Position numbers and translations under genes: made by a program. The notes beneath the pieces were generated by a model. The model saw only the letters and a program-made list of their open reading frames with translations, had not been told where the DNA came from and ran no database searches. Below are positions 23,824 through 62,375 of a stretch of 64,000 bases of DNA, piece after piece; the stretch's first letter is position 1; every line of letters begins with the position of its first letter. Origin of the DNA: a virus; the IMG/VR virus record IMGVR_UViG_3300042473_001368. The stretch is one strand, 5' to 3'.

Positions 23824-24591
23824 TTATATTGTTTGAGACGAATGGCTATCTGTACTATAGATTTCATCTACATAATATTCAATATCCGACATTGTAGATT
23901 TATAAAGTATATCAGAACTGATTCGCTTTGAAAGGTACAGTAGTACCTCTCTACAGTAATGTAGATCGTATATACTGTACAGATTTTTTATTAACTCGTA
24001 TGGTTCTGATGTAAGAAAATCAATTGAGATGCGTATATTTCTTTTTGGTGACTCGAATAACACGTATTCCCATTGAATACTCTTGTAGAACTCTCTTACT
24101 AGTTTAAACGTTGATGGAGGCAATTTAGATACTATAGACAGTTGATCAGACTTTGGTAGAGTATCAAAGCAAATAACATTATCTTGTATATCTATAGTCT
24201 TAATTGTTTCTATAAATGTATCATCATTACTATCTCTTATTAATGTCCTTGGAAGTGTGAATGTTATAGAAAGCAATCCATCTGTAATAGTTTTGTCTAC
24301 ACGACTTACGCCGTCAAAGCATTTGAATAAGTTTGACATATTTAAATCGATATACTTATCGTTATCTTTTATACGAACTTTCTCACTAAGCCATAACTGA
24401 CGAGCTTTTAACAATACAAAAAATTTATCTACAATACAGAGAGGTTCTATCTCGAAATGATCAATAAGATACTTAAACAGACTCTCATCATCATTTTCAT
24501 AAGAGAGTCTTGCAATATCTATTACATTGTTAAACAAGAATGGTTTAACAGTAAACGGCTTTTTTGATATAGGTAGATGTATAGTGAACAT
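23824..24591 (-). CDS. Second gp26/gp51-like baseplate hub assembly protein
   Basis: IHLPISKKPFTVKPF N-terminus like gp26; tandem paralog. Confidence 0.55.
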   Translation of the reverse strand: MFTIHLPISKKPFTVKPFLFNNVIDIARLSYENDDESLFKYLIDHFEIEPLCIVDKFFVLLKARQLWLSEKVRIKDNDKYIDLNMSNLFKCFDGVSRVDKTITDGLLSITFTLPRTLIRDSNDDTFIETIKTIDIQDNVICFDTLPKSDQLSIVSKLPPSTFKLVREFYKSIQWEYVLFESPKRNIRISIDFLTSEPYELIKNLYSIYDLHYCREVLLYLSKRISSDILYKSTMSDIEYYVDEIYSTDSHSSQTI

Positions 24592-24593
24592 TA

Positions 24594-25262
24594 TTATGCA
24601 ATATTTCCAGTATCATTAATTATATCACCTGTAAAATAACCTTGTGTTTCGAGAGGGTATTTAACCTTATAGTTTGTATAGCCAAATGTAATGGTCTTAA
24701 CACTGAATTCGTCACCTGTATAGTTTAGTGTTACACCTTCAGCGTTAGTAGGAAACGCACCATAGAATGTATATTCTTTACGCATTTTCATTTTTCTATC
24801 ATACTGCGTGAGTGTTATAGTAGATCTCAATTTACCGCCCAACAAACCATCAATGCCTAGTGCAATAATCCATGGTCTAAAGAGCATTGCCTCTATATCT
24901 GCATTAGTTTCTAGAAAATTAATAGAAACATTTCGCTGTAAGAAATCAACACGTTGTGATACGCCTTGCCCAGGCATAAATGCACCTCTGCTACTATCTA
25001 CACCGATAGATACAGCTTCTATTTGCTCTCCCGGTATAGTAAAATCTTGAGCTACAAATATATTGTTATTATTCGTATCAGTCCAATCTAGAGGAGATTT
25101 GGCTACCCACGCTCCGTAGTCTGCTTTACTTAATGTTGAATTTATATTATCTGCTAACCCTTGAGGTTCATCGACAGTTACAGTCCATAAAAACGGTAAT
25201 GGTATTGAAAATTTATCAAATGTAGAAAATACCGTTAAAAACGATGGAACTATGTTACTCAT
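24594..25262 (-). CDS. Tail tube-like protein (gp19/gp54 paralog)
   Basis: YTFYGAFPTN...LNY....FSVKTITFGY tube-fold motif. Confidence 0.7.
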   Translation of the reverse strand: MSNIVPSFLTVFSTFDKFSIPLPFLWTVTVDEPQGLADNINSTLSKADYGAWVAKSPLDWTDTNNNNIFVAQDFTIPGEQIEAVSIGVDSSRGAFMPGQGVSQRVDFLQRNVSINFLETNADIEAMLFRPWIIALGIDGLLGGKLRSTITLTQYDRKMKMRKEYTFYGAFPTNAEGVTLNYTGDEFSVKTITFGYTNYKVKYPLETQGYFTGDIINDTGNIA

Positions 25263-28228: not shown

Positions 28229-28810
28229 TCAGAACGCTAGCTTTTCAACATGCATCTGAGAATATACAAAGGTAAATCCACTAGTAATTTCACCAGATTC
28301 TTGATAATTGTAATCGATAGTATTAATTGATGTAGGAAACGCTTTTGTATACTTAAAAGCAATTTTTTTATTGTTGTATTCATCAAGACCATAAATGGTC
28401 ATATCAGTTTGATAATCACTAAAATTAGAATCAATTTGAATATTTTGAGCATTATATCTGCCCTCTGTTTGATCGTGAAGTAGGTTTAACCACTGATATA
28501 TCACCCAATAGTTATTGTATTCATTATCTATGTTAAATTTTACATTAACAGGCGGATATGAGTTTTTAGAATGTGAAGAAACATACAGTGTATTACCTGC
28601 ATATCTATTCTCAATTGCAGGTACAGTTATCTCAGGTACCATGCTACCAAATATCGAGAACTGAACAGCATCTGGTTTAACAGACCTACCATCTTCCTCG
28701 CTTCTTAGTGTATTTGAGAATGTCTTTAAGATTGGAGGTAAATCGAACACAAGTAGAAACTTATCAACTCGCGACTTATTTAAAATTGATTGTGGTAGTG
28801 TATTGACCAT
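28229..28810 (-). CDS. gp3: Tail tube terminator/completion protein (gp3-like)
   Basis: VPEITVP...VNVKFNIDNEYNNYWVIYQWL...FKYTKAFPTSI. Confidence 0.7.
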   Translation of the reverse strand: MVNTLPQSILNKSRVDKFLLVFDLPPILKTFSNTLRSEEDGRSVKPDAVQFSIFGSMVPEITVPAIENRYAGNTLYVSSHSKNSYPPVNVKFNIDNEYNNYWVIYQWLNLLHDQTEGRYNAQNIQIDSNFSDYQTDMTIYGLDEYNNKKIAFKYTKAFPTSINTIDYNYQESGEITSGFTFVYSQMHVEKLAF

Positions 28811-33147: not shown

Positions 33148-34062
33148 TTATGCTTTGTTGTATATATTACTTGAATCGAGAGGGTCTGAGAGAACTGCAT
33201 AGTAAATTGCTTCTTCATCAAACATTTGAGTATATTTGTCGAATGGACACTCAGCAGGAATACCACCGATTTCGAAATCATACAAATATGATTTTCTATG
33301 ACCTTTAGAGTAATCAGCTTTAGGAAGAATATTTGCATGCATATCGTAACCGAATAATGTAGGAGATGTAACATTCCATATTACTTTCGATGGCTTACCA
33401 ATTGCAGCAGCAATATGCTGTAAAGAAGAATCGATAAGAATACGTTCGGTTGATAAGTGTATGATAGCTGCTAAAGTACCTACTGTGCAACGTTCATCTA
33501 ATCTCTCGCAGTTCTCGAGTACAGGGTGATACTGATTACACACATGTAATACATGATAACCTTTCTGTACTAACATATTCACTATTGACTGAGCAATATT
33601 AGGGTGAATATCTCTAGCCCAGTTATACGGTAGCGTATGAACGCTACCTCCGAATGGCTGAAAGACGCAAAGTGGTTTCTGATTACCTAAAAATCGTTTA
33701 CCTGCAATTTCTACCTCTCTAAAATTAAAATTAAGTGATGAACTCTTGTATTGCTTTGTACCAACAAGATTGCACCAGGTTTTAATAAGGTGCAATCTCT
33801 TAAAAATATGATCTTGCTGTCTGTACGGATCCTGAGCGAAGATTTTTGTATCTGTCCTGCCTGAGATATAATCTCTATAGAAATACTCGAGACTGTTGAG
33901 GTCTCTACTCTCACTTACACCTTCATTGCGTTCAAATACTCCAGGATACGCGCTACATACAATAATATCATCGTCTTTATTTTCATGCTTATATGAATTG
34001 ATAACACTAGTAGCAGCTACATGCTTACCTAGTCCTCCTGTTATATGAAAGATTGTTCTCAT
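33148..34062 (-). CDS. Glycosyltransferase, GT9/heptosyltransferase-like
   Basis: GGLGKHV N-terminal motif; LIDSSLQHIAAA...VIW. Confidence 0.75.
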   Translation of the reverse strand: MRTIFHITGGLGKHVAATSVINSYKHENKDDDIIVCSAYPGVFERNEGVSESRDLNSLEYFYRDYISGRTDTKIFAQDPYRQQDHIFKRLHLIKTWCNLVGTKQYKSSSLNFNFREVEIAGKRFLGNQKPLCVFQPFGGSVHTLPYNWARDIHPNIAQSIVNMLVQKGYHVLHVCNQYHPVLENCERLDERCTVGTLAAIIHLSTERILIDSSLQHIAAAIGKPSKVIWNVTSPTLFGYDMHANILPKADYSKGHRKSYLYDFEIGGIPAECPFDKYTQMFDEEAIYYAVLSDPLDSSNIYNKA

Positions 34063-40841: not shown

Positions 40842-41084
40842 ATGTACTGTAACTGTGGAAATAAGATTGAAGAAGCTCGTCTCGAGCTTAAACTAGAGAA
40901 GTGTAGGGTTTGTGCTTTTGCTGGACCTGATCTACGTCCTAAAGGTCGAATGATTTATAGCCATAAAACCGCTGGTGAGATTGAGATCTTGTCGCATAGT
41001 ACTTGGCAGGAGAATCGTTCACGCTTTCAAGCTAATGGTGCTCGCAGCGCAGTTAAGAATTTTAGTAAAAACGTTTGTAGTTAA
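40842..41084 (+). CDS. DksA/TraR-type C4 zinc-finger-like protein
   Basis: CNCGNKIEEARLE...CRVCA. Confidence 0.55.
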   Translation: MYCNCGNKIEEARLELKLEKCRVCAFAGPDLRPKGRMIYSHKTAGEIEILSHSTWQENRSRFQANGARSAVKNFSKNVCS

Positions 41085-41085
41085 T

Positions 41086-41637
41086 ATGAAAAAAGAAAGT
41101 TCATTTAAGGCTCAATGGAAAGCCGAGACAGACTTTATCAATGGTCTTGTCAAAAAATATCCAAATGTAAAATGGAGCCATGGCTCTCCTGAGATTAGCG
41201 ATTGCCCTACGGGCTGGCGACCAATTGTTGAAGACTTGTTTGCTGAGCTCGATACTCTTTCAAGAAATGGTATTGGCTATTACGAGTCTGGTTTGGTCAA
41301 GCGCATTATTGATGAGTGCAATCGTTTTCTCGATAAACTGCACATGCCTCGCAAATTAAGATTTAAAAGAAGATTTGCAAAACATCGTGTCGAAAAACCA
41401 GATATCAAAATTGAACAGCTTAAAGAAAAATTTGCTGAACTGCGAGTCTATTATAGTTATAATGATCAAAGAGCACATGATCGCGTACAAGGTATGATTG
41501 ATCTTGCAGAAAGAATTTGTAGCCACACGTGTCAGGTTAGCGGAGCAGATGGCAAGCTAAGAACTGATGGTTGGTGGGTTGTGCTAAGCGATAAAGAATA
41601 TTTAAAACTTAAAAAGAGAAAATATGGAAAAACGTAA
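41086..41637 (+). CDS. Conserved phage hypothetical protein
   Basis: PTGWRPIV...QLKEKFAELRVYY...TCQVSG; start moved to MKKESS. Confidence 0.65.
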   Translation: MKKESSFKAQWKAETDFINGLVKKYPNVKWSHGSPEISDCPTGWRPIVEDLFAELDTLSRNGIGYYESGLVKRIIDECNRFLDKLHMPRKLRFKRRFAKHRVEKPDIKIEQLKEKFAELRVYYSYNDQRAHDRVQGMIDLAERICSHTCQVSGADGKLRTDGWWVVLSDKEYLKLKKRKYGKT

Positions 41638-42145
41638 ACAATATGCAATTGGTCAACATGATCTTTGCTGCGAGCATCTAGGAATCGGCAATAGTCACGA
41701 AGATCGATGTGATACTCTTTTTGAGGCAGTGCTTGCTTTGCAAGACGATCTTACAAAGTTTAAAGAACGAGCTGCTGGTCTCGAGACTCTCGCTGGTGAA
41801 TTGATCACGATGTTTCGTGTTAATGTACAGCGTGGCAATATTAACTTAAAGGATGCTGAGCTTGATACTCATTTGACACCATGGATTCAACGATTGCAAA
41901 AGTTAAAACAGATTAAGACACTTGGAAATATGCCAAAAGCATGGTTTGAAGCTAGCGCTAAAATTGAAGCAGATAGCATTATTGTAGGTAATCGATCTGA
42001 GCCAACTCATCCTTACCCGCAGAAATATAGTGTTTGTGATGGGTGCAATAAACGAGTAGAAGTAACTTTTGGTGGATCACATAGCGATTGTAGTTATGTA
42101 TATGGCCGCAGAGGCTGGCGTCAACTTGGCTCGTATGATGGCTAA
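41624..42145 (+). CDS. Hypothetical protein
   Basis: 173-aa ORF in co-directional run. Confidence 0.55.
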   Translation: MEKRKQYAIGQHDLCCEHLGIGNSHEDRCDTLFEAVLALQDDLTKFKERAAGLETLAGELITMFRVNVQRGNINLKDAELDTHLTPWIQRLQKLKQIKTLGNMPKAWFEASAKIEADSIIVGNRSEPTHPYPQKYSVCDGCNKRVEVTFGGSHSDCSYVYGRRGWRQLGSYDG

Positions 42146-42165
42146 ACAAAAAAATAAGAAATAAT

Positions 42166-42360
42166 ATGGAAAATAATAGTAATAATGGGTGGTTTGCATT
42201 AGCACTAACCTTGGTGTTTATTGTGCTTAAATTAACCCAGCAGATTGATTGGTCTTGGTGGTGGGTATTGTCTCCGCTCTGGCTGCCTCTTGCGTTGGTA
42301 CTTTGCTTGGCAGCTATAGTCGTGATATTTATGGCACTATTTGGAGGTTTTATGAGATGA
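42166..42360 (+). CDS. Small membrane protein
   Basis: Two hydrophobic helices; IDWSWWWVLSPLWLP motif common in phages. Confidence 0.7.
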   Translation: MENNSNNGWFALALTLVFIVLKLTQQIDWSWWWVLSPLWLPLALVLCLAAIVVIFMALFGGFMR

Positions 42361-42710
42361 GCGAAAAACGATTAGACGGCAAAGCAGAGCTTGAAAGAGC
42401 TCTGAAGCTACACCAAGCCAGCGCAGATAATTATCATGTTGGTAATATGTACCCTTTGAAGGATGGTGAAGAGATTGACTTGTCACAGTTAACTATTAGT
42501 TCAAAAAGCATGAGCAAACCTTTAATCAATTGTTATGATGGTTTAAGTGAAGAGTATTTAAATAGCTTGAGTAAAGACGATCTGGTAAATATTTTGCTAA
42601 TTATCACCACCGTTAATCCAGTTAATAGTGGTGAATATTATCCCACTGATTGCTATCTTCCAGATACGCTAGCAGACATAATCAGAAAAAGACATGTACG
42701 GACGACTTAA
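42357..42710 (+). CDS. Hypothetical protein
   Basis: Start moved to MSEKRL (ATGA overlap). Confidence 0.5.
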   Translation: MSEKRLDGKAELERALKLHQASADNYHVGNMYPLKDGEEIDLSQLTISSKSMSKPLINCYDGLSEEYLNSLSKDDLVNILLIITTVNPVNSGEYYPTDCYLPDTLADIIRKRHVRTT

Positions 42711-42897
42711 CAGAAACCAGTCTACACAAATGATTGAGGAAAATGCTAATTGCGCATGTAGGGAATGTAATCCAAATGCATGGTGGATGGTTGTATGCTG
42801 CATTTGCGGCAATAAACGCTGTCCTCATGCTACAAATCATGAAAATGAGTGCACCAACAGCAACGAAACAGGTCAAGCAGGATCAGTTTATAAATAA
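42694..42897 (+). CDS. Small Cys-rich hypothetical protein
   Basis: CACRECN...CCICGNKRCPHA. Confidence 0.55.
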   Translation: MYGRLNRNQSTQMIEENANCACRECNPNAWWMVVCCICGNKRCPHATNHENECTNSNETGQAGSVYK

Positions 42898-42913
42898 GGA
42901 ACGCTGATATAAT
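42896..42913 (+). promoter_or_regulatory. GAAC-N5-TATAAT promoter
   Basis: AAGGAAC GCTGA TATAAT. Confidence 0.7.
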
Positions 42914-42921
42914 TATCTTAT

Positions 42922-43602
42922 ATGGAACTTACAACAGATTTACTAGTCGTAATGGGCGATACTCATGGAGAATGGGGATCTGCTCTTGATGCTATACAAA
43001 GGAATCATATTCGTGATGCAATTATTCTGCACGCTGGAGATGTAGGCATTGGCTTCCTACCTAAAGATGTGCAGGAAGAAATACTTGAGTCTCTTAATGC
43101 AGAGCTCGCAGAAAGAAATGTGCGAATGTTTTGCATTAGAGGCAATCACGATGACCCGCAATACTTTACTGGTGACTATGCATATTCGAATATTGCACTG
43201 ATACCAGACTATACGCGCATGCGAATCAATGGCGAAGAGTTTTTGTTTGTAGGTGGTGCAATTAGTATTGATCGCATCAAGCGTACTACTTATAAGTCTT
43301 GGTGGCCTGATGAAGTACTGGTATATGATGCAGAGCGTGTTACGCCATGTGATGTTCTAGTTACTCATACTGCTCCAAGCTGGGTTGGTCCGAATGATAA
43401 AACTGGTATTGCTTATTACACTGAGAATGACGCCACTCTTTGGGCTGAATGCGTCTCTGAGAGAATTCTCATGAATAAATTAGTTGAAGCATGCGGTGCA
43501 AAGCGTCACTATTGCGGCCACTTTCATATGAGTGCAACTGCAGAAAACAATGGTTGTCGTAGCACAATCCTTAATATCAATGAACTATTAGAACATCGCT
43601 AA
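42922..43602 (+). CDS. Calcineurin-like metallophosphoesterase
   Basis: GDTHG, GDVG, RGNHD, THTAP, GHFH. Confidence 0.9.
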   Translation: MELTTDLLVVMGDTHGEWGSALDAIQRNHIRDAIILHAGDVGIGFLPKDVQEEILESLNAELAERNVRMFCIRGNHDDPQYFTGDYAYSNIALIPDYTRMRINGEEFLFVGGAISIDRIKRTTYKSWWPDEVLVYDAERVTPCDVLVTHTAPSWVGPNDKTGIAYYTENDATLWAECVSERILMNKLVEACGAKRHYCGHFHMSATAENNGCRSTILNINELLEHR

Positions 43603-46312: not shown

Positions 46313-46387
46313 CGGTATGAAGCTTTAATGGTGAAGCGGTTGTCTGAAGAACAACATAAGACGATTCAAGCGCGTCCATGCCGGCCA
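46313..46387 (+). tRNA. tRNA-Phe(GAA), G73
   Basis: GTTGT-CTGAAGA-ACAAC, CCA; imperfect T-stem. Confidence 0.8.
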
Positions 46388-49145: not shown

Positions 49146-49244
49146 CAGTATATAGTGTAGTGATAGCACAACAAATGCGAACTGTGAAAACAGATGTAGC
49201 TAATCAAAATGGTTGCGAGGGTTTGATTCCCTCTGTACTGACAA
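49146..49244 (+). ncRNA. Expanded tRNA-like RNA with extra GAAA-capped arm
   Basis: CAGTATA/TGTACTG acceptor, D-arm, 46-nt middle, GAGGG-TTTGATT-CCCTC, ends ACAA. Confidence 0.6.
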
Positions 49245-49342: not shown

Positions 49343-50770
49343 TTATCGACTGACCTCTTCCCAGTCCATTGATCCGTAAATGTCATCGCCATCTTTACTC
49401 GCTGCTACAGCTAGAGTTAATTCAAAGGATGTATTTGTAAAGCTATTTCTCTCAAGTTGGAACTTGAACAAAGCTTCTTTAAGAATATCAATAGTAGGAC
49501 TTCCTTGAGCATTGGAAGCAAGATATCCAGAAGCCAATACTCTACCGCCGGACAGACTAGTTCCATCTAGCTTGTATTCTACAGCGGAATTAGCGCTTCC
49601 AGCATCGGTCCATGTACCACCACTAGTTGTCCCTGAAGCAACTGCTCGCCAATTGTAAACTCCTGTACCTAATCCCATTATAGATAATGCAGTTAGAATA
49701 ACAATAGCATCTTGTCTTGCTGATTTTAAACGTATTGAAACTACAGGGTAAAAGGTTCCTTTTACTGTAAGATCTTTAGGAGCAGTTATTTCTGTGCCTA
49801 CTGCTTGTTGCAAGCCTCTTAGCTCATAGCCACCTTCAGATATAACTGTGCTACAAACTTGTTTTAATTTGCTCGGACCTGAAGTTGCAGCTTTATTTTC
49901 AATTTCATATCTGAGCGGTAGTGATCCTGTTGTAATGTATGTTGAATCAATTAGATTAGCGTGATGGAAGTAATGGCAAGGTACAAACTGACCATTGATA
50001 ACAAATCCTGTTCTCACAGTGCCTAATCCGAGCCATTCGATATCCGCGAATAAAATTTGAGCCTTTGTAATATCAAGGGTAAGTCCAGATGGTCCTGATC
50101 CATCTAAGCGATCTACATTCCATTGCGACTGTGGGATACGGTTAGATGAAAGCGAGCCAGAGGTAATGCTGCGTTCAACCATGTAAAGAGTGCTATCGTC
50201 TAACTCTAAGTAGATACCATTATCAACGCCAAAATAACCAACACGTTGTCTAAGATTTGTCTTAGCTTGGTTGAAGGTGAATGTATTTAACAGCTGTAAG
50301 CTCTTACCAGGTTGATATGCAAATACTTTAGTAGTTTCGCGATAAACTTTAGAACCGCTGAGAGCATCAACTTTTAGTTCGACGAGACCTTGAGTTTGAA
50401 TAAATTGCGCAGAAGCAGATGTTGATGTAGATCCTCCTGTTAATGTTGCCCAAAGGTTGTTATCTGCATATCTATGAGACGAGTCAAAAAGAGTCAATGG
50501 ACTTGATGTTCGTGTTCTTCCGAATGCGTCGCTTCCCATGTTTAAGTTGCCTGTATAGTTGCTTGTTGTATCATCAACACTCTTAACTAATACAGCATAC
50601 TTAGGATAGACCTCAACAGAACTTGTTGGAGCAACTCCGGTAGCGTTAGGTGAGTTGTATCGTGTAACAGATACAGCAGGGTATGTTGTATGATTTTTAA
50701 GTTCAACAAACTTACCGTATTCTGCGGTTTGATAATTTGCTACAACAACGGTATTATATTCACTCATCAA
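49343..50770 (-). CDS. Late virion-type protein, antisense within the tRNA cluster
   Basis: 475 aa beta-rich; DAFGRTRTSSPLTLFDS motif of phage structural proteins; late promoter 50774-50780. Confidence 0.7.
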   Translation of the reverse strand: MMSEYNTVVVANYQTAEYGKFVELKNHTTYPAVSVTRYNSPNATGVAPTSSVEVYPKYAVLVKSVDDTTSNYTGNLNMGSDAFGRTRTSSPLTLFDSSHRYADNNLWATLTGGSTSTSASAQFIQTQGLVELKVDALSGSKVYRETTKVFAYQPGKSLQLLNTFTFNQAKTNLRQRVGYFGVDNGIYLELDDSTLYMVERSITSGSLSSNRIPQSQWNVDRLDGSGPSGLTLDITKAQILFADIEWLGLGTVRTGFVINGQFVPCHYFHHANLIDSTYITTGSLPLRYEIENKAATSGPSKLKQVCSTVISEGGYELRGLQQAVGTEITAPKDLTVKGTFYPVVSIRLKSARQDAIVILTALSIMGLGTGVYNWRAVASGTTSGGTWTDAGSANSAVEYKLDGTSLSGGRVLASGYLASNAQGSPTIDILKEALFKFQLERNSFTNTSFELTLAVAASKDGDDIYGSMDWEEVSR

Positions 50771-52536: not shown

Positions 52537-52629
52537 GGAACGTTGACAGAGTCCGGTATTGTGCTGTCCTGCTAAGACATGGCCAACCCTATAAAGGTTG
52601 CATTGGTTCAAATCCAATACGTTCCTCCA
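52537..52629 (+). tRNA. tRNA-Ser(GCU), U73
   Basis: Class II, loop CTGCTAA, CCA. Confidence 0.88.
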
Positions 52630-53764: not shown

Positions 53765-53795
53765 GAGGAGACCGACTTTTAGTCGGTCTCCTCTT
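53765..53795. terminator. Perfect 13-bp hairpin, probable terminator
   Basis: GAGGAGACCGACT-TTT-AGTCGGTCTCCTC directly before promoter 53796. Confidence 0.7.
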
Positions 53796-53813
53796 AATGA
53801 ACTAGTGTATAAT
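53796..53813 (+). promoter_or_regulatory. GAAC-N5-TATAAT promoter
   Basis: AATGAAC TAGTG TATAAT. Confidence 0.75.
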
Positions 53814-53821
53814 AAGAGAGT

Positions 53822-54070
53822 ATGAAGGTAAGAGGAACAATCCAAGCAGATGTAGAGATTACAGACTTTGAAGCAGCGTGTATTGCAATTAAGGTAATTC
53901 GGATCACTAGAATGTGGCCAGGGCGATATCGTATTGATGAAAACGGCAATGTATGCGAAGAGGTGGTGAATGTAACATCTCATGAATGGTCTGAGACGAA
54001 GATTATCCGTCCTGCGACAGATGAGGATAGATTTACCTGCAAACTTATCCAAGATATTTTAAAGGGCTGA
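53822..54070 (+). CDS. Hypothetical protein; stop codon lies inside the tmRNA-like RNA
   Basis: 82-aa ORF after promoter 53796-53813. Confidence 0.65.
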   Translation: MKVRGTIQADVEITDFEAACIAIKVIRITRMWPGRYRIDENGNVCEEVVNVTSHEWSETKIIRPATDEDRFTCKLIQDILKG

Positions 54071-54130
54071 ATATGGTTTCGACGGGAGAGTTTACGCTCT
54101 CCCGGACGGGGTTCGAGTCCCCACGGTCCA
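54064..54130 (+). ncRNA. Mini tmRNA-like RNA (tRNA-like domain only)
   Basis: GGGCTGAATATGGTTTCGACGGG 5' end, GGGAGAG/CTCTCCC helix capped by 6 nt, GGAC-GGGG-TTCGAGT-CCCC, G3-U70, A73. Confidence 0.75.
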
Positions 54131-54149
54131 CTTTTTAACAAAACAAATT

Positions 54150-58222: not shown

Positions 58223-59167
58223 ATGAAAAAACAATTACATCTAAAGTGGGCCGTTAGTACAACGCAAATTTTTATCGCTAACCTCGACCCTGAATTCACA
58301 CCGGTGACTGCAGATGAAAAGTTTCATCTTGCGATCAAGCAAAGCACCTTTCTAGGCGGTGAACCATATTTGAGATTTGCTGACTACTTATCTGATGCAA
58401 CTCAAGATCCTAATGCTCAGTTGTTTATTACGCAAAGAGCAGATAGTGTTGAGGACTTTTTCAGAGTTGTAATTGCGGCTGATGCTGCACGTAGAGCCGG
58501 CTTCAAAAACATTAGTCTTGTCTTACCTTATTTCCCTGGTGCTCGTCAAGATCGTGTTTGTAATGAAGGCGAAAGCTTGACTGTTAAGGTCTATGCTGAT
58601 ATGATTAATCGTTGCAATTTTGATGCTGTGTATATCCTAACTCCTCACAGCGATGTTACGCCTGCGCTTATTGATAATGTTGAGCTCATTGACGATCTTG
58701 TCTATGCCGAAAAGGCTGTAGCTGACATCTATCAAAAAACTGGAGTGAATAGCTTTATGATTATCTGTCCAGACGCTGGAGCAGGCAAACGCATTGAAAA
58801 GATTGTCAAACATCTTAAAGCAACGTTTGCGACATTTCATAATTTTGACGTAGTCAATTGCGAGAAAGTTCGTGATCTTGCTACAGGTGAATTGCAAAGC
58901 TTTAAGGTTCATGCTGATCGTAGCCTTAATGGCTATAACTGCATTATCTTTGATGACATTGTGAGCATGGGCGGCACCTTTATTGGACTCAACGCTAAAC
59001 TTGAAGAAGCTGGCGCAGAAAAAGTCTATTTGAGTGTCTCGCACGCAGATTGTCTCAAAGGCGTAGTCAAGATGTGCTCAACCTTCGATGGCGTTTACAT
59101 CACGAATAGCCGCAAAATTGATCGAGACGGTCTTAAGAATCTCACGATTTGGCCAATTGAACTCTAA
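58223..59167 (+). CDS. Ribose-phosphate pyrophosphokinase-like (candidate Adps of NARP1)
   Basis: FLGGEPY, LPYFPGARQDR, PHSDV, CPDAGA, IIFDDIVSMGGTF. Confidence 0.85.
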   Translation: MKKQLHLKWAVSTTQIFIANLDPEFTPVTADEKFHLAIKQSTFLGGEPYLRFADYLSDATQDPNAQLFITQRADSVEDFFRVVIAADAARRAGFKNISLVLPYFPGARQDRVCNEGESLTVKVYADMINRCNFDAVYILTPHSDVTPALIDNVELIDDLVYAEKAVADIYQKTGVNSFMIICPDAGAGKRIEKIVKHLKATFATFHNFDVVNCEKVRDLATGELQSFKVHADRSLNGYNCIIFDDIVSMGGTFIGLNAKLEEAGAEKVYLSVSHADCLKGVVKMCSTFDGVYITNSRKIDRDGLKNLTIWPIEL

Positions 59168-59897: not shown

Positions 59898-60731
59898 ATG
59901 AATAATACACTAGCACCGCTACTCGTCGACGGCTATAAAGTCGACCATCGCCGTCAATATCCAAGCAACAGCAAGCTTGTCTTTAGTAACCTTACTGCGC
60001 GAGGCTCTCGTGTAGCAGGTCAAAACAAAGTAGTTCTCTTTGGCTTGCAATATTTCATCAAGCGCTATCTCATTGAAGATTGGAATCGCAACTTCTTCGA
60101 GCGACCATTGGATGAGGTAACTGCAAAATACGCACGCCGTTTGCTCGCATATCTTGGACCTAACCAGATCGGCGATCAACACATTCGTGATTTACACGCT
60201 CTTGGCCACTTGCCTCTCGAAATCTGGAGCTTGCCTGAAGGCAGTCTCGTTGATCTTCGTGTGCCAATGTTTGTTGTATGGAATACAGATTCTCGTTTCT
60301 TCTGGCTGACTAATGCTATTGAAACTCTCTTGAGCACTACGATCTGGGGACCTTGCACGAGCGCAACAACTGCATTGATGTATCGTCGAATCTTAAATCG
60401 TTGGGCTCAAAAAACTGCTCCTGAAGCGATTGACTTTGTGCCATGGCAAGGCCACGACTTCTCCTTCCGCGGCCACTTTGGTCTCGAGGCTGCATCGATG
60501 AGCGGAGCTGCTCACTTACTGAGCTTCACTGGTACTGATACATTGCCTGCTATTGATTTCCTCGAGGAATATTATGGCGCTGATGTTGAGAAAGAACTCG
60601 TCGGTGGTTCGGTTGCTGCAACAGAACACAGCGTGATGTGCATGGGTATCGGCGAGTGTGAGGTTTATTTAGATTCTCTCTCTGAAGAGAGTCTTATTGA
60701 ATTTGCTGAGAAGAACGGTTATCGTTTTTAA
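59898..60731 (+). CDS. NAMPT-like (Namat) N-terminal fragment
   Basis: VDGYKVDHRRQYP, HDFSFRG, FTGTDTLPA, ATEHSVMC then premature stop. Confidence 0.9.
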   Translation: MNNTLAPLLVDGYKVDHRRQYPSNSKLVFSNLTARGSRVAGQNKVVLFGLQYFIKRYLIEDWNRNFFERPLDEVTAKYARRLLAYLGPNQIGDQHIRDLHALGHLPLEIWSLPEGSLVDLRVPMFVVWNTDSRFFWLTNAIETLLSTTIWGPCTSATTALMYRRILNRWAQKTAPEAIDFVPWQGHDFSFRGHFGLEAASMSGAAHLLSFTGTDTLPAIDFLEEYYGADVEKELVGGSVAATEHSVMCMGIGECEVYLDSLSEESLIEFAEKNGYRF

Positions 60732-61503
60732 ATTGATTACACTCATCTTTTGACCAGTTATGCGATCGTCCCATATGTTTATTGAAATTTCCTCCATCTA
60801 AATTTTGTAATGAGCATATGGGACACGAAAGCTTAGGCCTAGCCTGAGCCCGCGCTTTAGCCCACTCTTTATTTTGACCTAGCAGCTTTGCTGCAGCGCT
60901 CATTTTCTGCTTTGTCGATTCACTATGAGATTTGCCGAGAAATGTTGGCTCTCTTGATTCTACCAGCAATTTCCCTCTATCTCCTCGCCAGAAATCTTCG
61001 TTAATTTTGTCCATCTTTAACCTAAACTCAGGAGTAGCCCATAACTCTTTCATTTTTTCTCTCCTATGTTGTCTGTATTCTTCACTTGCTTGTCGCGAAG
61101 AAACCGCTTTTGAAATCTTATTTACATGATCCTCAGAAAGCACCCTACCAATATTGCATATTATAAACGGTTTATTATTATTGTCGTGAGTATTCAAAAA
61201 ATCCTTTCTGGTACGAGCATTAACCTTTTTTAAGAATTTTGATTCAAATATACAAGCTTCAGTGTGCGTCTCAAACTGTTTGTGAATTACAATAGAAATG
61301 GGGGTAATGCCTTTATCTAAAAGATTTTTTACAGATAACGAACTACTATAATATTTAATAAACAGATCTTCAGAAGGTTTTAATTTTAACCTAATATTCG
61401 CACACCTAACACCATAGTAATATTTTAACTCACCGTCAACTTCAAACTTAAGCATATAAGTGTAACATTTAACATCATCATTTGTTTTATTAAGAACTAA
61501 CAT
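60694..61503 (-). mobile_element. GIY-YIG-type homing endonuclease inserted antisense in the NAMPT-like gene
   Basis: YTYML...YYYGVR...YYSSS; NUMOD3 SHSESTKQKMS; CPIC..H..H; late promoter 61511-61517. Confidence 0.85.
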
Positions 61504-61538: not shown

Positions 61539-62375
61539 ATGAAAATAACACAAGAAAATAAAAAAGAATTCGCTGAATATTTGACATTTAAGCGATTAAT
61601 TACAGAAACATACCCAACTGGTATCGTAAGTATCGTAAGCGACACGTTTTCATTCTGGAATGTAGTCAATCCTGATGGAGGCATTTGCGCACAGCTTAAA
61701 GATTTGATTATGGCTCGTGATGGTAAGGTTGTCATTCGTCCTGACAGTGGTGATCCAGTGAAGATTGTTACTGGCTATACTGATGAAGAATGGACGGCTC
61801 TTGAATATGCTCGTAGTTATAGTGGAGGTTTGACGATGCCATCGGAACTTGAGCGTAAGGGCATGATTGTGTGCCTTTGGGAAATCTTCGGCGGTACCGA
61901 AACCAGCACTGGATATAAGCAGCTCGACTCTCACATTGGAGCAATCTATGGTGATAGCATTACTCTTGAGCGTGCAGAGGAAATCTGCCAACGCCTCGCT
62001 GATAAAGGCTTTGCATCGACTAACATTGTCTTTGGTATTGGCAGCTTTACCTATCAAGGCGCTGTAACTCCTGATGCAATTGTAACTCGCGACACCTATG
62101 GCTTTGCTGTAAAGAGCACCTATGGTGAAGTTGAGATCAACGGAGATATTGTTGGTAAAGAGATCTTCAAAGATCCTAAGACTGACAATGGTCTGAAGAA
62201 GAGTGCAAAAGGTCTGACCGCTGTCTATGAAACAGCAGATGGCTTTGAGCTCAAAGATCAAGCAACCTGGGATGAAGTTCGCAATTGCGCATTCTATCCT
62301 GTCTTCGCAAATGGCAATCAGTGTGTTGTTGAAACTCTAAGCGAGATTCGTGCTCGCCTTGCTAAAAACTTCTAA
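61539..62375 (+). CDS. NAMPT-like (Namat) C-terminal fragment
   Basis: FKRLITETYPTGIVSIVSDT, VIRPDSGDP, IYGDSIT, GIGSFTYQ, TRDT, KDPKTD...KSAKG. Confidence 0.9.
   Translation: MKITQENKKEFAEYLTFKRLITETYPTGIVSIVSDTFSFWNVVNPDGGICAQLKDLIMARDGKVVIRPDSGDPVKIVTGYTDEEWTALEYARSYSGGLTMPSELERKGMIVCLWEIFGGTETSTGYKQLDSHIGAIYGDSITLERAEEICQRLADKGFASTNIVFGIGSFTYQGAVTPDAIVTRDTYGFAVKSTYGEVEINGDIVGKEIFKDPKTDNGLKKSAKGLTAVYETADGFELKDQATWDEVRNCAFYPVFANGNQCVVETLSEIRARLAKNF

Follow-up and report, generated by a model that had tools for sequence, protein, structure and literature searches.

The 64,000-nucleotide (nt) stretch of viral DNA analyzed here (the window; IMG/VR virus record IMGVR_UViG_3300042473_001368) carries at positions 54064-54130, + strand, a 67-nt element that we hold with high confidence to be a real gene for a transfer-messenger RNA (tmRNA) consisting of the tRNA-like domain (TLD) only. 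Taken as a whole, the observations are best, and probably correctly, explained by a functional TLD-only tmRNA gene whose product would be charged and compete with the tmRNA of the host. The RNA is not new in kind, being a compact form of the published but barely charted TLD-only tmRNA. An initial annotation of the window had described it as a TLD with the entire mRNA domain removed, and family membership, covariation, and purifying selection agree in identifying it as a tmRNA TLD that lacks the mRNA-like domain. The parts of this mini-tmRNA, read from the sequence and, for helix 2, also from the fold, are as follows:

54064-54130, + strand: mini-tmRNA gene (TLD only), 67 nt from G1 to discriminator A73
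54064-54070, + strand: acceptor 5' strand, GGGCTGA
54071-54077, + strand: tmRNA-type D-loop without a D-stem, ATATGGT
54078-54083, + strand: TTCGAC box (UUCGAC in the RNA)
54084-54103, + strand: helix 2 hairpin, 20 nt, GGGAGAG / loop TTTACG / CTCTCCC
54104-54107, + strand: GGAC box, the equivalent of E. coli G332-C335, including the SmpB-contact A334
54108-54122, + strand: T-arm, GGGG-TTCGAGT-CCCC, with a 4-bp stem and the 7-nt loop UUCGAGU
54123-54129, + strand: acceptor 3' strand, ACGGTCC
54130, + strand: discriminator A73
54131-54136, + strand: C74 followed by five T, a possible transcription stop

What the initial annotation had read directly from the letters held in full, including the segments, G3-U70, A73, the 4-bp T-stem, the A/A opposition at 7-66, and the lack of an encoded CCA. 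The acceptor stem is formed by G1-C72, G2-C71, G3-U70, C4-G69, U5-G68, and G6-C67, with A7 and A66 opposed, and the element has the traits of a TLD-only tmRNA: G3-U70, A73, a D-loop without a D-stem, GG-UUCGAC, and GGAC followed by a T-arm with a UUCRAnU loop. The minimum free energy (MFE) fold returns the same architecture (-30.6 kcal/mol, z = -2.4). A spacer of only 20 nt separates the GAC box from the GGAC box and forms 7-9 bp with a loop of 4-6 nt, and the closed helix 2 hairpin described earlier therefore stands, while its 6-nt loop on seven pairs is one of two equivalent readings, the MFE fold preferring nine pairs and a 4-nt loop. This hairpin takes the place of the resume codon, tag open reading frame (ORF), and pseudoknots, none of which is present in the sequence or the fold. 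We also rejected a two-piece (permuted) tmRNA, since the 5' half precedes the 3' half, as in the standard gene order, and helix 2 forms a covalently closed hairpin.

The two ends of the window RNA are collinear with positions 1-24 and 332-360 of E. coli ssrA, the gene for bacterial tmRNA (SsrA). We checked the MG1655 sequence, in which positions 13-21 read GGAUUCGAC and 332-335 read GGAC, and the E. coli string quoted in the initial annotation matches it. SmpB contacts tmRNA at A15, U17, A334, and G19 (PMC8363625); the window RNA keeps equivalents of U17 and G19 in its D-loop and UUCGAC segment and of A334 in its GGAC box, and the A15 equivalent is a U, a substitution also present in L149, a complete phage tmRNA that encodes a tag (below). 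Unlike bacterial tmRNA, it has no mRNA-like domain, resume codon, tag ORF, pseudoknots, or helix 5, and measures 67 rather than 363 nt. It resembles tRNA-Ala in G3-U70, A73, and the T-arm but has no D-stem, anticodon arm, or anticodon.

Standard tools pass over the locus. ARAGORN makes no tRNA or tmRNA call at 54064-54130, Rfam at gathering thresholds makes no call at the site, the Rfam tRNA model RF00005 (at least 29 bits required) does not call it, and neither ARAGORN nor Rfam finds a full tmRNA within the 64-kb window. Partial 5' and 3' matches to the Rfam tmRNA model had been anticipated; at a permissive E ≤ 10 in local mode, RF00023 aligns the T-arm alone (15 nt, 6.8 bits). Other Rfam matches at E ≤ 10 are a weak mascRNA match and a chance match to rli60, and the mitochondrial tmRNA model RF02544 has no match at that threshold between 53950 and 54250. 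Relatives of the window RNA belonging to the same compact subtype (described below) score 39-44 bits end to end against RF00023, for which the gathering score is 47 bits. A covariance model, R1, was seeded with 37 main-type viral sequences (alignment A2) that include neither the window RNA, nor its subtype, nor the TLD-only tmRNA of Mycobacterium phage DS6A. With filters off, its top match on both strands of the 64 kb is 54064-54130, aligned at full length with 42.9 bits and E = 2.8e-9, and the next-best match, at 24.1 bits, falls on the tRNA-Ala(UGC) gene of the phage itself. R1 also matches the DS6A RNA (JN698994, 28478-28557) with 56.3 bits.

The general TLD-only form, as recognized by pattern and by model, is common in viral metagenomes. 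An IMG/VR scan for a 5' box, a gap of 8-38 nt, and a 3' box, with UUCGAC inside the pattern and G3-U70 and A73 outside it, yielded at least 120 contigs. Among the matches listed, acceptor pairing reaches at least six of seven positions in 117 of 125, G3-T70 is present in 116 of those 117 well-paired matches, and the discriminator is A73 in 123 of 125. Loci L004, L009, L013, L043, L061, L099, L102, and L110 were left out for poor acceptor pairing, and L132, L137, L138, and L148 for long inserts, both sets being of another or uncertain class. As a separate observation, these latter four carry a 30-nt insert, a GCGGG-TTCGAC-TCCCG arrangement, and weak GGG/CCA-type acceptor pairing, and resemble a different tRNA-like class; the source of L148 is the Gemmatimonadetes metagenome-assembled genome JAQBPZ010000055.1.

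Pairs were counted on the length-homogeneous seed A2, by tabulating segments, and on A5, an alignment fitted to the model; the MAFFT alignments A1, A3, and A4 did not enter these counts, as unequal D-loop lengths had made the 5' acceptor strand slide. In A2, compensatory changes occur at 16 of the 23 pairs of the consensus fold, GG and UUCGAC are invariant (UUCGAC being part of the search pattern), and G3-U70 is present in 37 of 37 sequences while pair 4-69 takes five forms. A5, with 89 members aligned to the model, is biased toward the model structure by construction, and A2 and the segment tabulation concur with it: paired cells amount to 96.2%, compared with 66.9% after shuffling and no more than 52% once the partners are slid. 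Its covariation score is 0.644 vs 0.124, double changes are found at 17 of 23 pairs, and G3-U70 is kept in 89 of 89 members beside a pair 4-69 that again takes five forms. Helix 2 covaries at seven of its eight pairs family-wide and at six positions within the subtype. Deposited phage genomes gave much less: a nucleotide search found no match to the 2.5-kb region or the 67-nt element, and a main-type query returned only four full-length matches. One deposited main-type mini-TLD lies at 33356-33433 of Streptomyces phage pSt2308 (PV588686.1; query coverage 100%, identity 79.5%), with no annotated feature.

Within this family the window RNA belongs to a compact subtype, defined by its 4-bp T-stem, that a pattern with GGAC immediately before GGGG retrieved from 8 viral and 22 metagenomic loci. 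It comprises 17 distinct sequences of 61-68 nt, all of them paired at acceptor positions 1-6, with covariation at 4-69, 5-68, and 6-67, and all of them with A73. A non-Watson-Crick 7-66 with a purine at 66 (A/A, C/A, or G/A) is found in 13 of the 17, G3-U70 in 16 (17 if one orthologue, L131, is read in a shifted register), and an encoded CCA in 9; the window's clade and a few other members end in A-C and then a T-run. The subtype sits close to tRNA genes, with one relative between tRNA-Gly and tRNA-Met (L153), another 9 nt from tRNA-Gly (L152), and a third 1.7 kb past a tRNA array (L134). Two features had been listed as defects of the window RNA, its 4-bp T-stem and its A/A opposition, but as traits common to a 17-sequence subtype they are not signs of decay.

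These features bear on whether the element is a functionless relic, left when a phage or host tmRNA gene decayed after an internal deletion. The short T-stem, the A/A at 7-66, and the lack of an encoded CCA would all fit such a history, but the same features recur in 17 distinct sequences with covarying stems, and one phage retains a mini-TLD alongside an intact tmRNA. That phage (record G004, IMG/VR contig 3300027659_000068) encodes, about 8 kb apart, a complete 305-nt tmRNA with the tag GKNNVVDSGLALAA and a mini-TLD. Their acceptor stems share six of seven pairs, suggesting that the mini-TLD was derived from, or is co-evolving with, the phage's own tmRNA:

1501-1805 (24318-24622 of the record), - strand: complete tmRNA L149
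1504-1569 (32194-32262 of the record), - strand: mini-TLD L153, same contig, inside a tRNA cluster

Comparison with syntenic orthologues points the same way. Three contigs from the metagenome pattern scan are colinear with the window at nucleotide identities of approximately 96% (L146), 93% (L135), and 78% (L131), and the mini-tmRNA itself is 98.5%, 95.5%, and 91% identical, respectively. By comparison, identity falls to 55-56% over the body of the adjacent 82-amino-acid (aa) gene in L135 and L131, and to 72% over the sequence downstream of the mini-tmRNA in L131. The second helix 2 pair, G-C in the window, is U-G in L131, both sides having changed. By this measure of relative conservation the mini-tmRNA copy is under purifying selection, and with the RNA 91-95% conserved against 55-56% for the neighboring gene body, we regard decay to a relic as very improbable.

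The closest published counterpart is Mycobacterium phage DS6A, listed by Hudson, Lau & Williams 2014 as having a "TLD only" tmRNA (PMC4131195) and entered in the tmRNA Website as tmID 11587; our literature search found no description of a widespread phage TLD-only family, and DS6A was the sole named phage example. According to the accounts of Mao et al. 2009 in PMC4131195 and PMC11915505, a DS6A-like molecule strongly inhibits tmRNA in E. coli, perhaps through SmpB titration. The 2025 tmRNA database holds nine "standard, no CDS" (coding sequence) sequences and repeats the DS6A result (PMC11915505). The two phage RNAs share G3-U70, A73, the tmRNA D-loop, a UCGAC box, a hairpin-closed helix 2, and a T-arm, and both lack a tag ORF and pseudoknots; R1 matches both and ARAGORN neither, and the GenBank record of DS6A has no feature at 28478-28557. 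DS6A differs in being of the main type: it is 80 nt long, its T-stem has 5 bp and its acceptor stem 7 bp, and its longer helix 2 bears a conserved apical AAAACCGCACGCGG hairpin. The 67-nt window RNA, by contrast, has a plain helix 2 of 7-8 bp, a 7-66 opposition that is not Watson-Crick, and a T-stem of 4 bp that follows GGAC directly. The settings differ as well, DS6A being a temperate siphovirus and the window RNA lying in a T4-like myovirus by a cluster of 28 tRNA genes. Organellar tmRNAs offer a second parallel, in that the jakobid mitochondrial tmRNA and the approximately 65-bp CDS-less plastid tmRNAs of Mallomonadaceae are also TLD only and of similar size (PMC11915505). Organellar tmRNA genes are usually circularly permuted and co-occur with a dedicated SmpB (RF02544; PMC11915505). 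Unlike in those systems, an SmpB gene was not found in the four searchable subtype-bearing phage records, which include G004 and of which one is a complete 140-kb genome (the window itself was not searched), and the partner SmpB must for that reason be the host's.

The RNA probably functions by interfering with host tagging of stalled proteins, and we lean toward a charged competitor of host tmRNA. Under this model the RNA would be transcribed behind the 82-aa gene, on the strand of the tRNA cluster, and excised by host tRNA-processing enzymes; the host CCA-adding enzyme would complete the CCA end, and host alanyl-tRNA synthetase (AlaRS) would attach alanine by way of G3-U70 and A73. Host SmpB would then bind at the D-loop and the GGAC elbow, and together with EF-Tu the RNA would compete with the tmRNA of the host for both SmpB and stalled ribosomes. 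Lacking a resume codon and a tag ORF, it could give the nascent chain at most one alanine rather than the ssrA degradation tag, and host tagging would be suppressed or bypassed during infection. The initial annotation had offered an SmpB decoy and a tag-less alanine donor as possible functions; in line with the TLD-only literature (PMC4131195; PMC3895274), both are plausible and are the right candidates. As described in PMC3895274, a TLD-only tmRNA accepts peptidyl transfer in vitro (Shimizu and Ueda 2006).

Whether charging is needed at all divides this competitor from a pure sponge, an uncharged RNA that would stay off the ribosome and shut off trans-translation by titrating host SmpB, perhaps along with AlaRS or EF-Tu. 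Several observations weigh against a charged competitor and, in part, for the sponge. The window RNA does not encode CCA, in contrast to 25 of the 27 tRNA genes that Rfam calls in the window. Its acceptor and T-arm stack has 11 layers (six pairs, the non-Watson-Crick 7-66, and four T-stem pairs), which is off the canonical tRNA geometry of 12 layers and could impair recognition by EF-Tu or RNase P. The L131 orthologue, read in the register of the window, begins GGCCTGA and has C at position 3, breaking G3-U70, although the model places its 5' end 1 nt upstream (GGGCCUG), keeping G3-U70 in a stem of 5 bp. Finally, in the account given in PMC4131195, tmRNA inhibition by a similar molecule was independent of chargeability, so that a plain decoy would be sufficient. 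On the other side, an uncharged sponge needs no alanine identity elements, and their retention across the family (G3-U70 in 89 of 89; A73 in 123 of 125 among the matches listed) therefore favors charging; because G3-U70 and A73 are near-invariant while neighboring pairs covary freely, charging appears to be under selection. The encoded CCA in 9 of 17 subtype sequences likewise speaks against a sponge, which we consider unlikely.

A further role for a charged RNA, which we put forward only tentatively, is that the alanyl-TLD and host SmpB enter ribosomes stalled on broken mRNAs, adding one or a few alanines in a tag-free or alanine-tailing rescue. The broken mRNAs might in this doubtful scenario arise, for example, from host defense nucleases or from phage-induced mRNA decay, and the RNA would accept the nascent chain in place of adding a degradation tag, so that the ribosome could be recycled.

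If ssrA tagging is indeed blocked or bypassed, interference with ribosome rescue would be a widespread phage strategy. TLD-only tmRNAs have hitherto been a literature curiosity, and the window shows a smaller form (61-68 nt, 11-layer stack) in large T4-like phages beside tRNA arrays. Such RNAs escape notice, as ARAGORN misses them, their Rfam scores fall just below threshold, and the DS6A and pSt2308 records leave them unannotated. That the alanine identity pair is so strictly kept speaks for the importance of charging, a step past the SmpB titration proposed in the literature, and the 67-nt form offers a natural minimal substrate for examining the requirements of AlaRS, SmpB, EF-Tu, and RNase P on tmRNA.

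The phage itself is a deeply divergent T4-like myovirus, its tail sheath sharing 34-40% identity with its counterparts in T4-like phages. ARAGORN lists 28 tRNA genes on the + strand between 45044 and 52629, and the mini-tmRNA follows 1.4 kb farther downstream along that strand, past a 346-aa gene and the 82-aa gene. The earlier statement that it stands outside the tRNA cluster is thus literally correct, the last tRNA ending at 52629, but the gap on the same strand is only 1.4 kb and relatives lie inside or beside clusters. No relatives of the upstream 346-aa protein were found in IMG/VR, and the 82-aa gene has no Pfam or PHROG family match. The immediate upstream region contains:

53765-53793, + strand: 12-bp GC-rich hairpin, candidate terminator, between the 346-aa and 82-aa genes; kept in 4/4 orthologues
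53808-53813, + strand: TATAAT block, candidate promoter, ahead of the 82-aa gene; kept in 4/4 orthologues
53822-54070, + strand: 82-aa gene, its TGA stop (54068-54070) inside the acceptor 5' strand

The hairpin, in which an A-T pair of the window is replaced in L131 by G-C, a compensatory change, and the TATAAT block would, as candidate terminator and candidate promoter, delimit a unit bearing the mini-tmRNA. These two elements do not establish the early-type transcription unit that the initial annotation had assigned; a promoter scan made no call at 53808-53813.

The overlap with the 82-aa gene raises the further alternative of a cis-acting element, in which the structure would serve the 82-aa mRNA as an RNase P/RNase Z site, a 3' stabilizer, or a terminator and have no role in trans. 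The RNA does lie at the 3' end of a short gene and overlaps its stop, and 32 of 87 family members adjoin a same-strand upstream ORF, with the upstream stop codon ending inside the RNA in 8 of the 87. A T-run of five begins 2 nt past the closure of the acceptor stem, and a T-run follows the RNA in the window, L146, and L131, that is, in three of four orthologues. However, it is missing in L135 and a terminator scan made no call at the T-run of the window, some relatives lie between tRNA genes without an upstream ORF, and GG-UUCGAC, GGAC, G3-U70, and A73 are conserved far past what a processing site or terminator hairpin needs. Together these observations make an exclusively cis-acting element improbable.

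For a trans-acting mini-tmRNA the overlap would still have consequences. The 82-aa proteins of the orthologues are approximately 45% identical with a conserved C-terminus, KLIQDIL, and the TGA falls on RNA bases 5-7 in all four orthologues, the window included. As the genes are arranged, a cut by RNase P at G1 would strip the 82-aa gene of its stop and leave a nonstop mRNA, and translation through to the TGA would in turn unfold the acceptor stem. Since the 5' processing site is upstream of the stop, excision of the RNA would make a programmed nonstop mRNA, and it is conceivable, though we would not press it, that the output of the 82-aa gene would thereby be coupled to the state of trans-translation.

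In these alignments the 3' end of the mini-tmRNA is also a recombination or mosaic boundary. The homology of L135 to the window ends two bases past A73 (L135 5225-5230 vs window 54130-54132), and beyond the break L135 continues with sequence that is found at 41083-43401 in the window. As tmRNA genes are often integration targets (PMC11915505), the element might be thought a phage attachment site (attP) that mimics host ssrA for integration. Such sites, however, carry the 3' part of their target, whereas this element unites both the 5' and the 3' half in an RNA that can fold; the stems covary and are not copies of one host sequence, the phage is a T4-like myovirus, and there is no integrase among the neighboring genes examined. 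We consider an attP origin extremely improbable.

A few additional features of the window were recorded. Within the tRNA region, tRNA-like sequences at 46313-46384 and 49146-49241 are called by Rfam and absent from the ARAGORN list, and three ARAGORN tRNAs score under the Rfam threshold. A 475-aa ORF on the - strand of the same region (49343-50770) has no Pfam family, and the subtype-bearing contig L134 encodes a protein approximately 55% identical to its product. Farther downstream, ORFs at 59898-60731 and 61539-62375 appear to be the N-terminal and C-terminal parts, respectively, of one split nicotinamide/nicotinate phosphoribosyltransferase, with a NUMOD3 homing-endonuclease-like ORF (60694-61503) on the opposite strand between them, possibly reflecting an intron or mobile-element insertion. 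A phosphoribosyl pyrophosphate (PRPP)-synthetase-like gene lies at 58223-59167.

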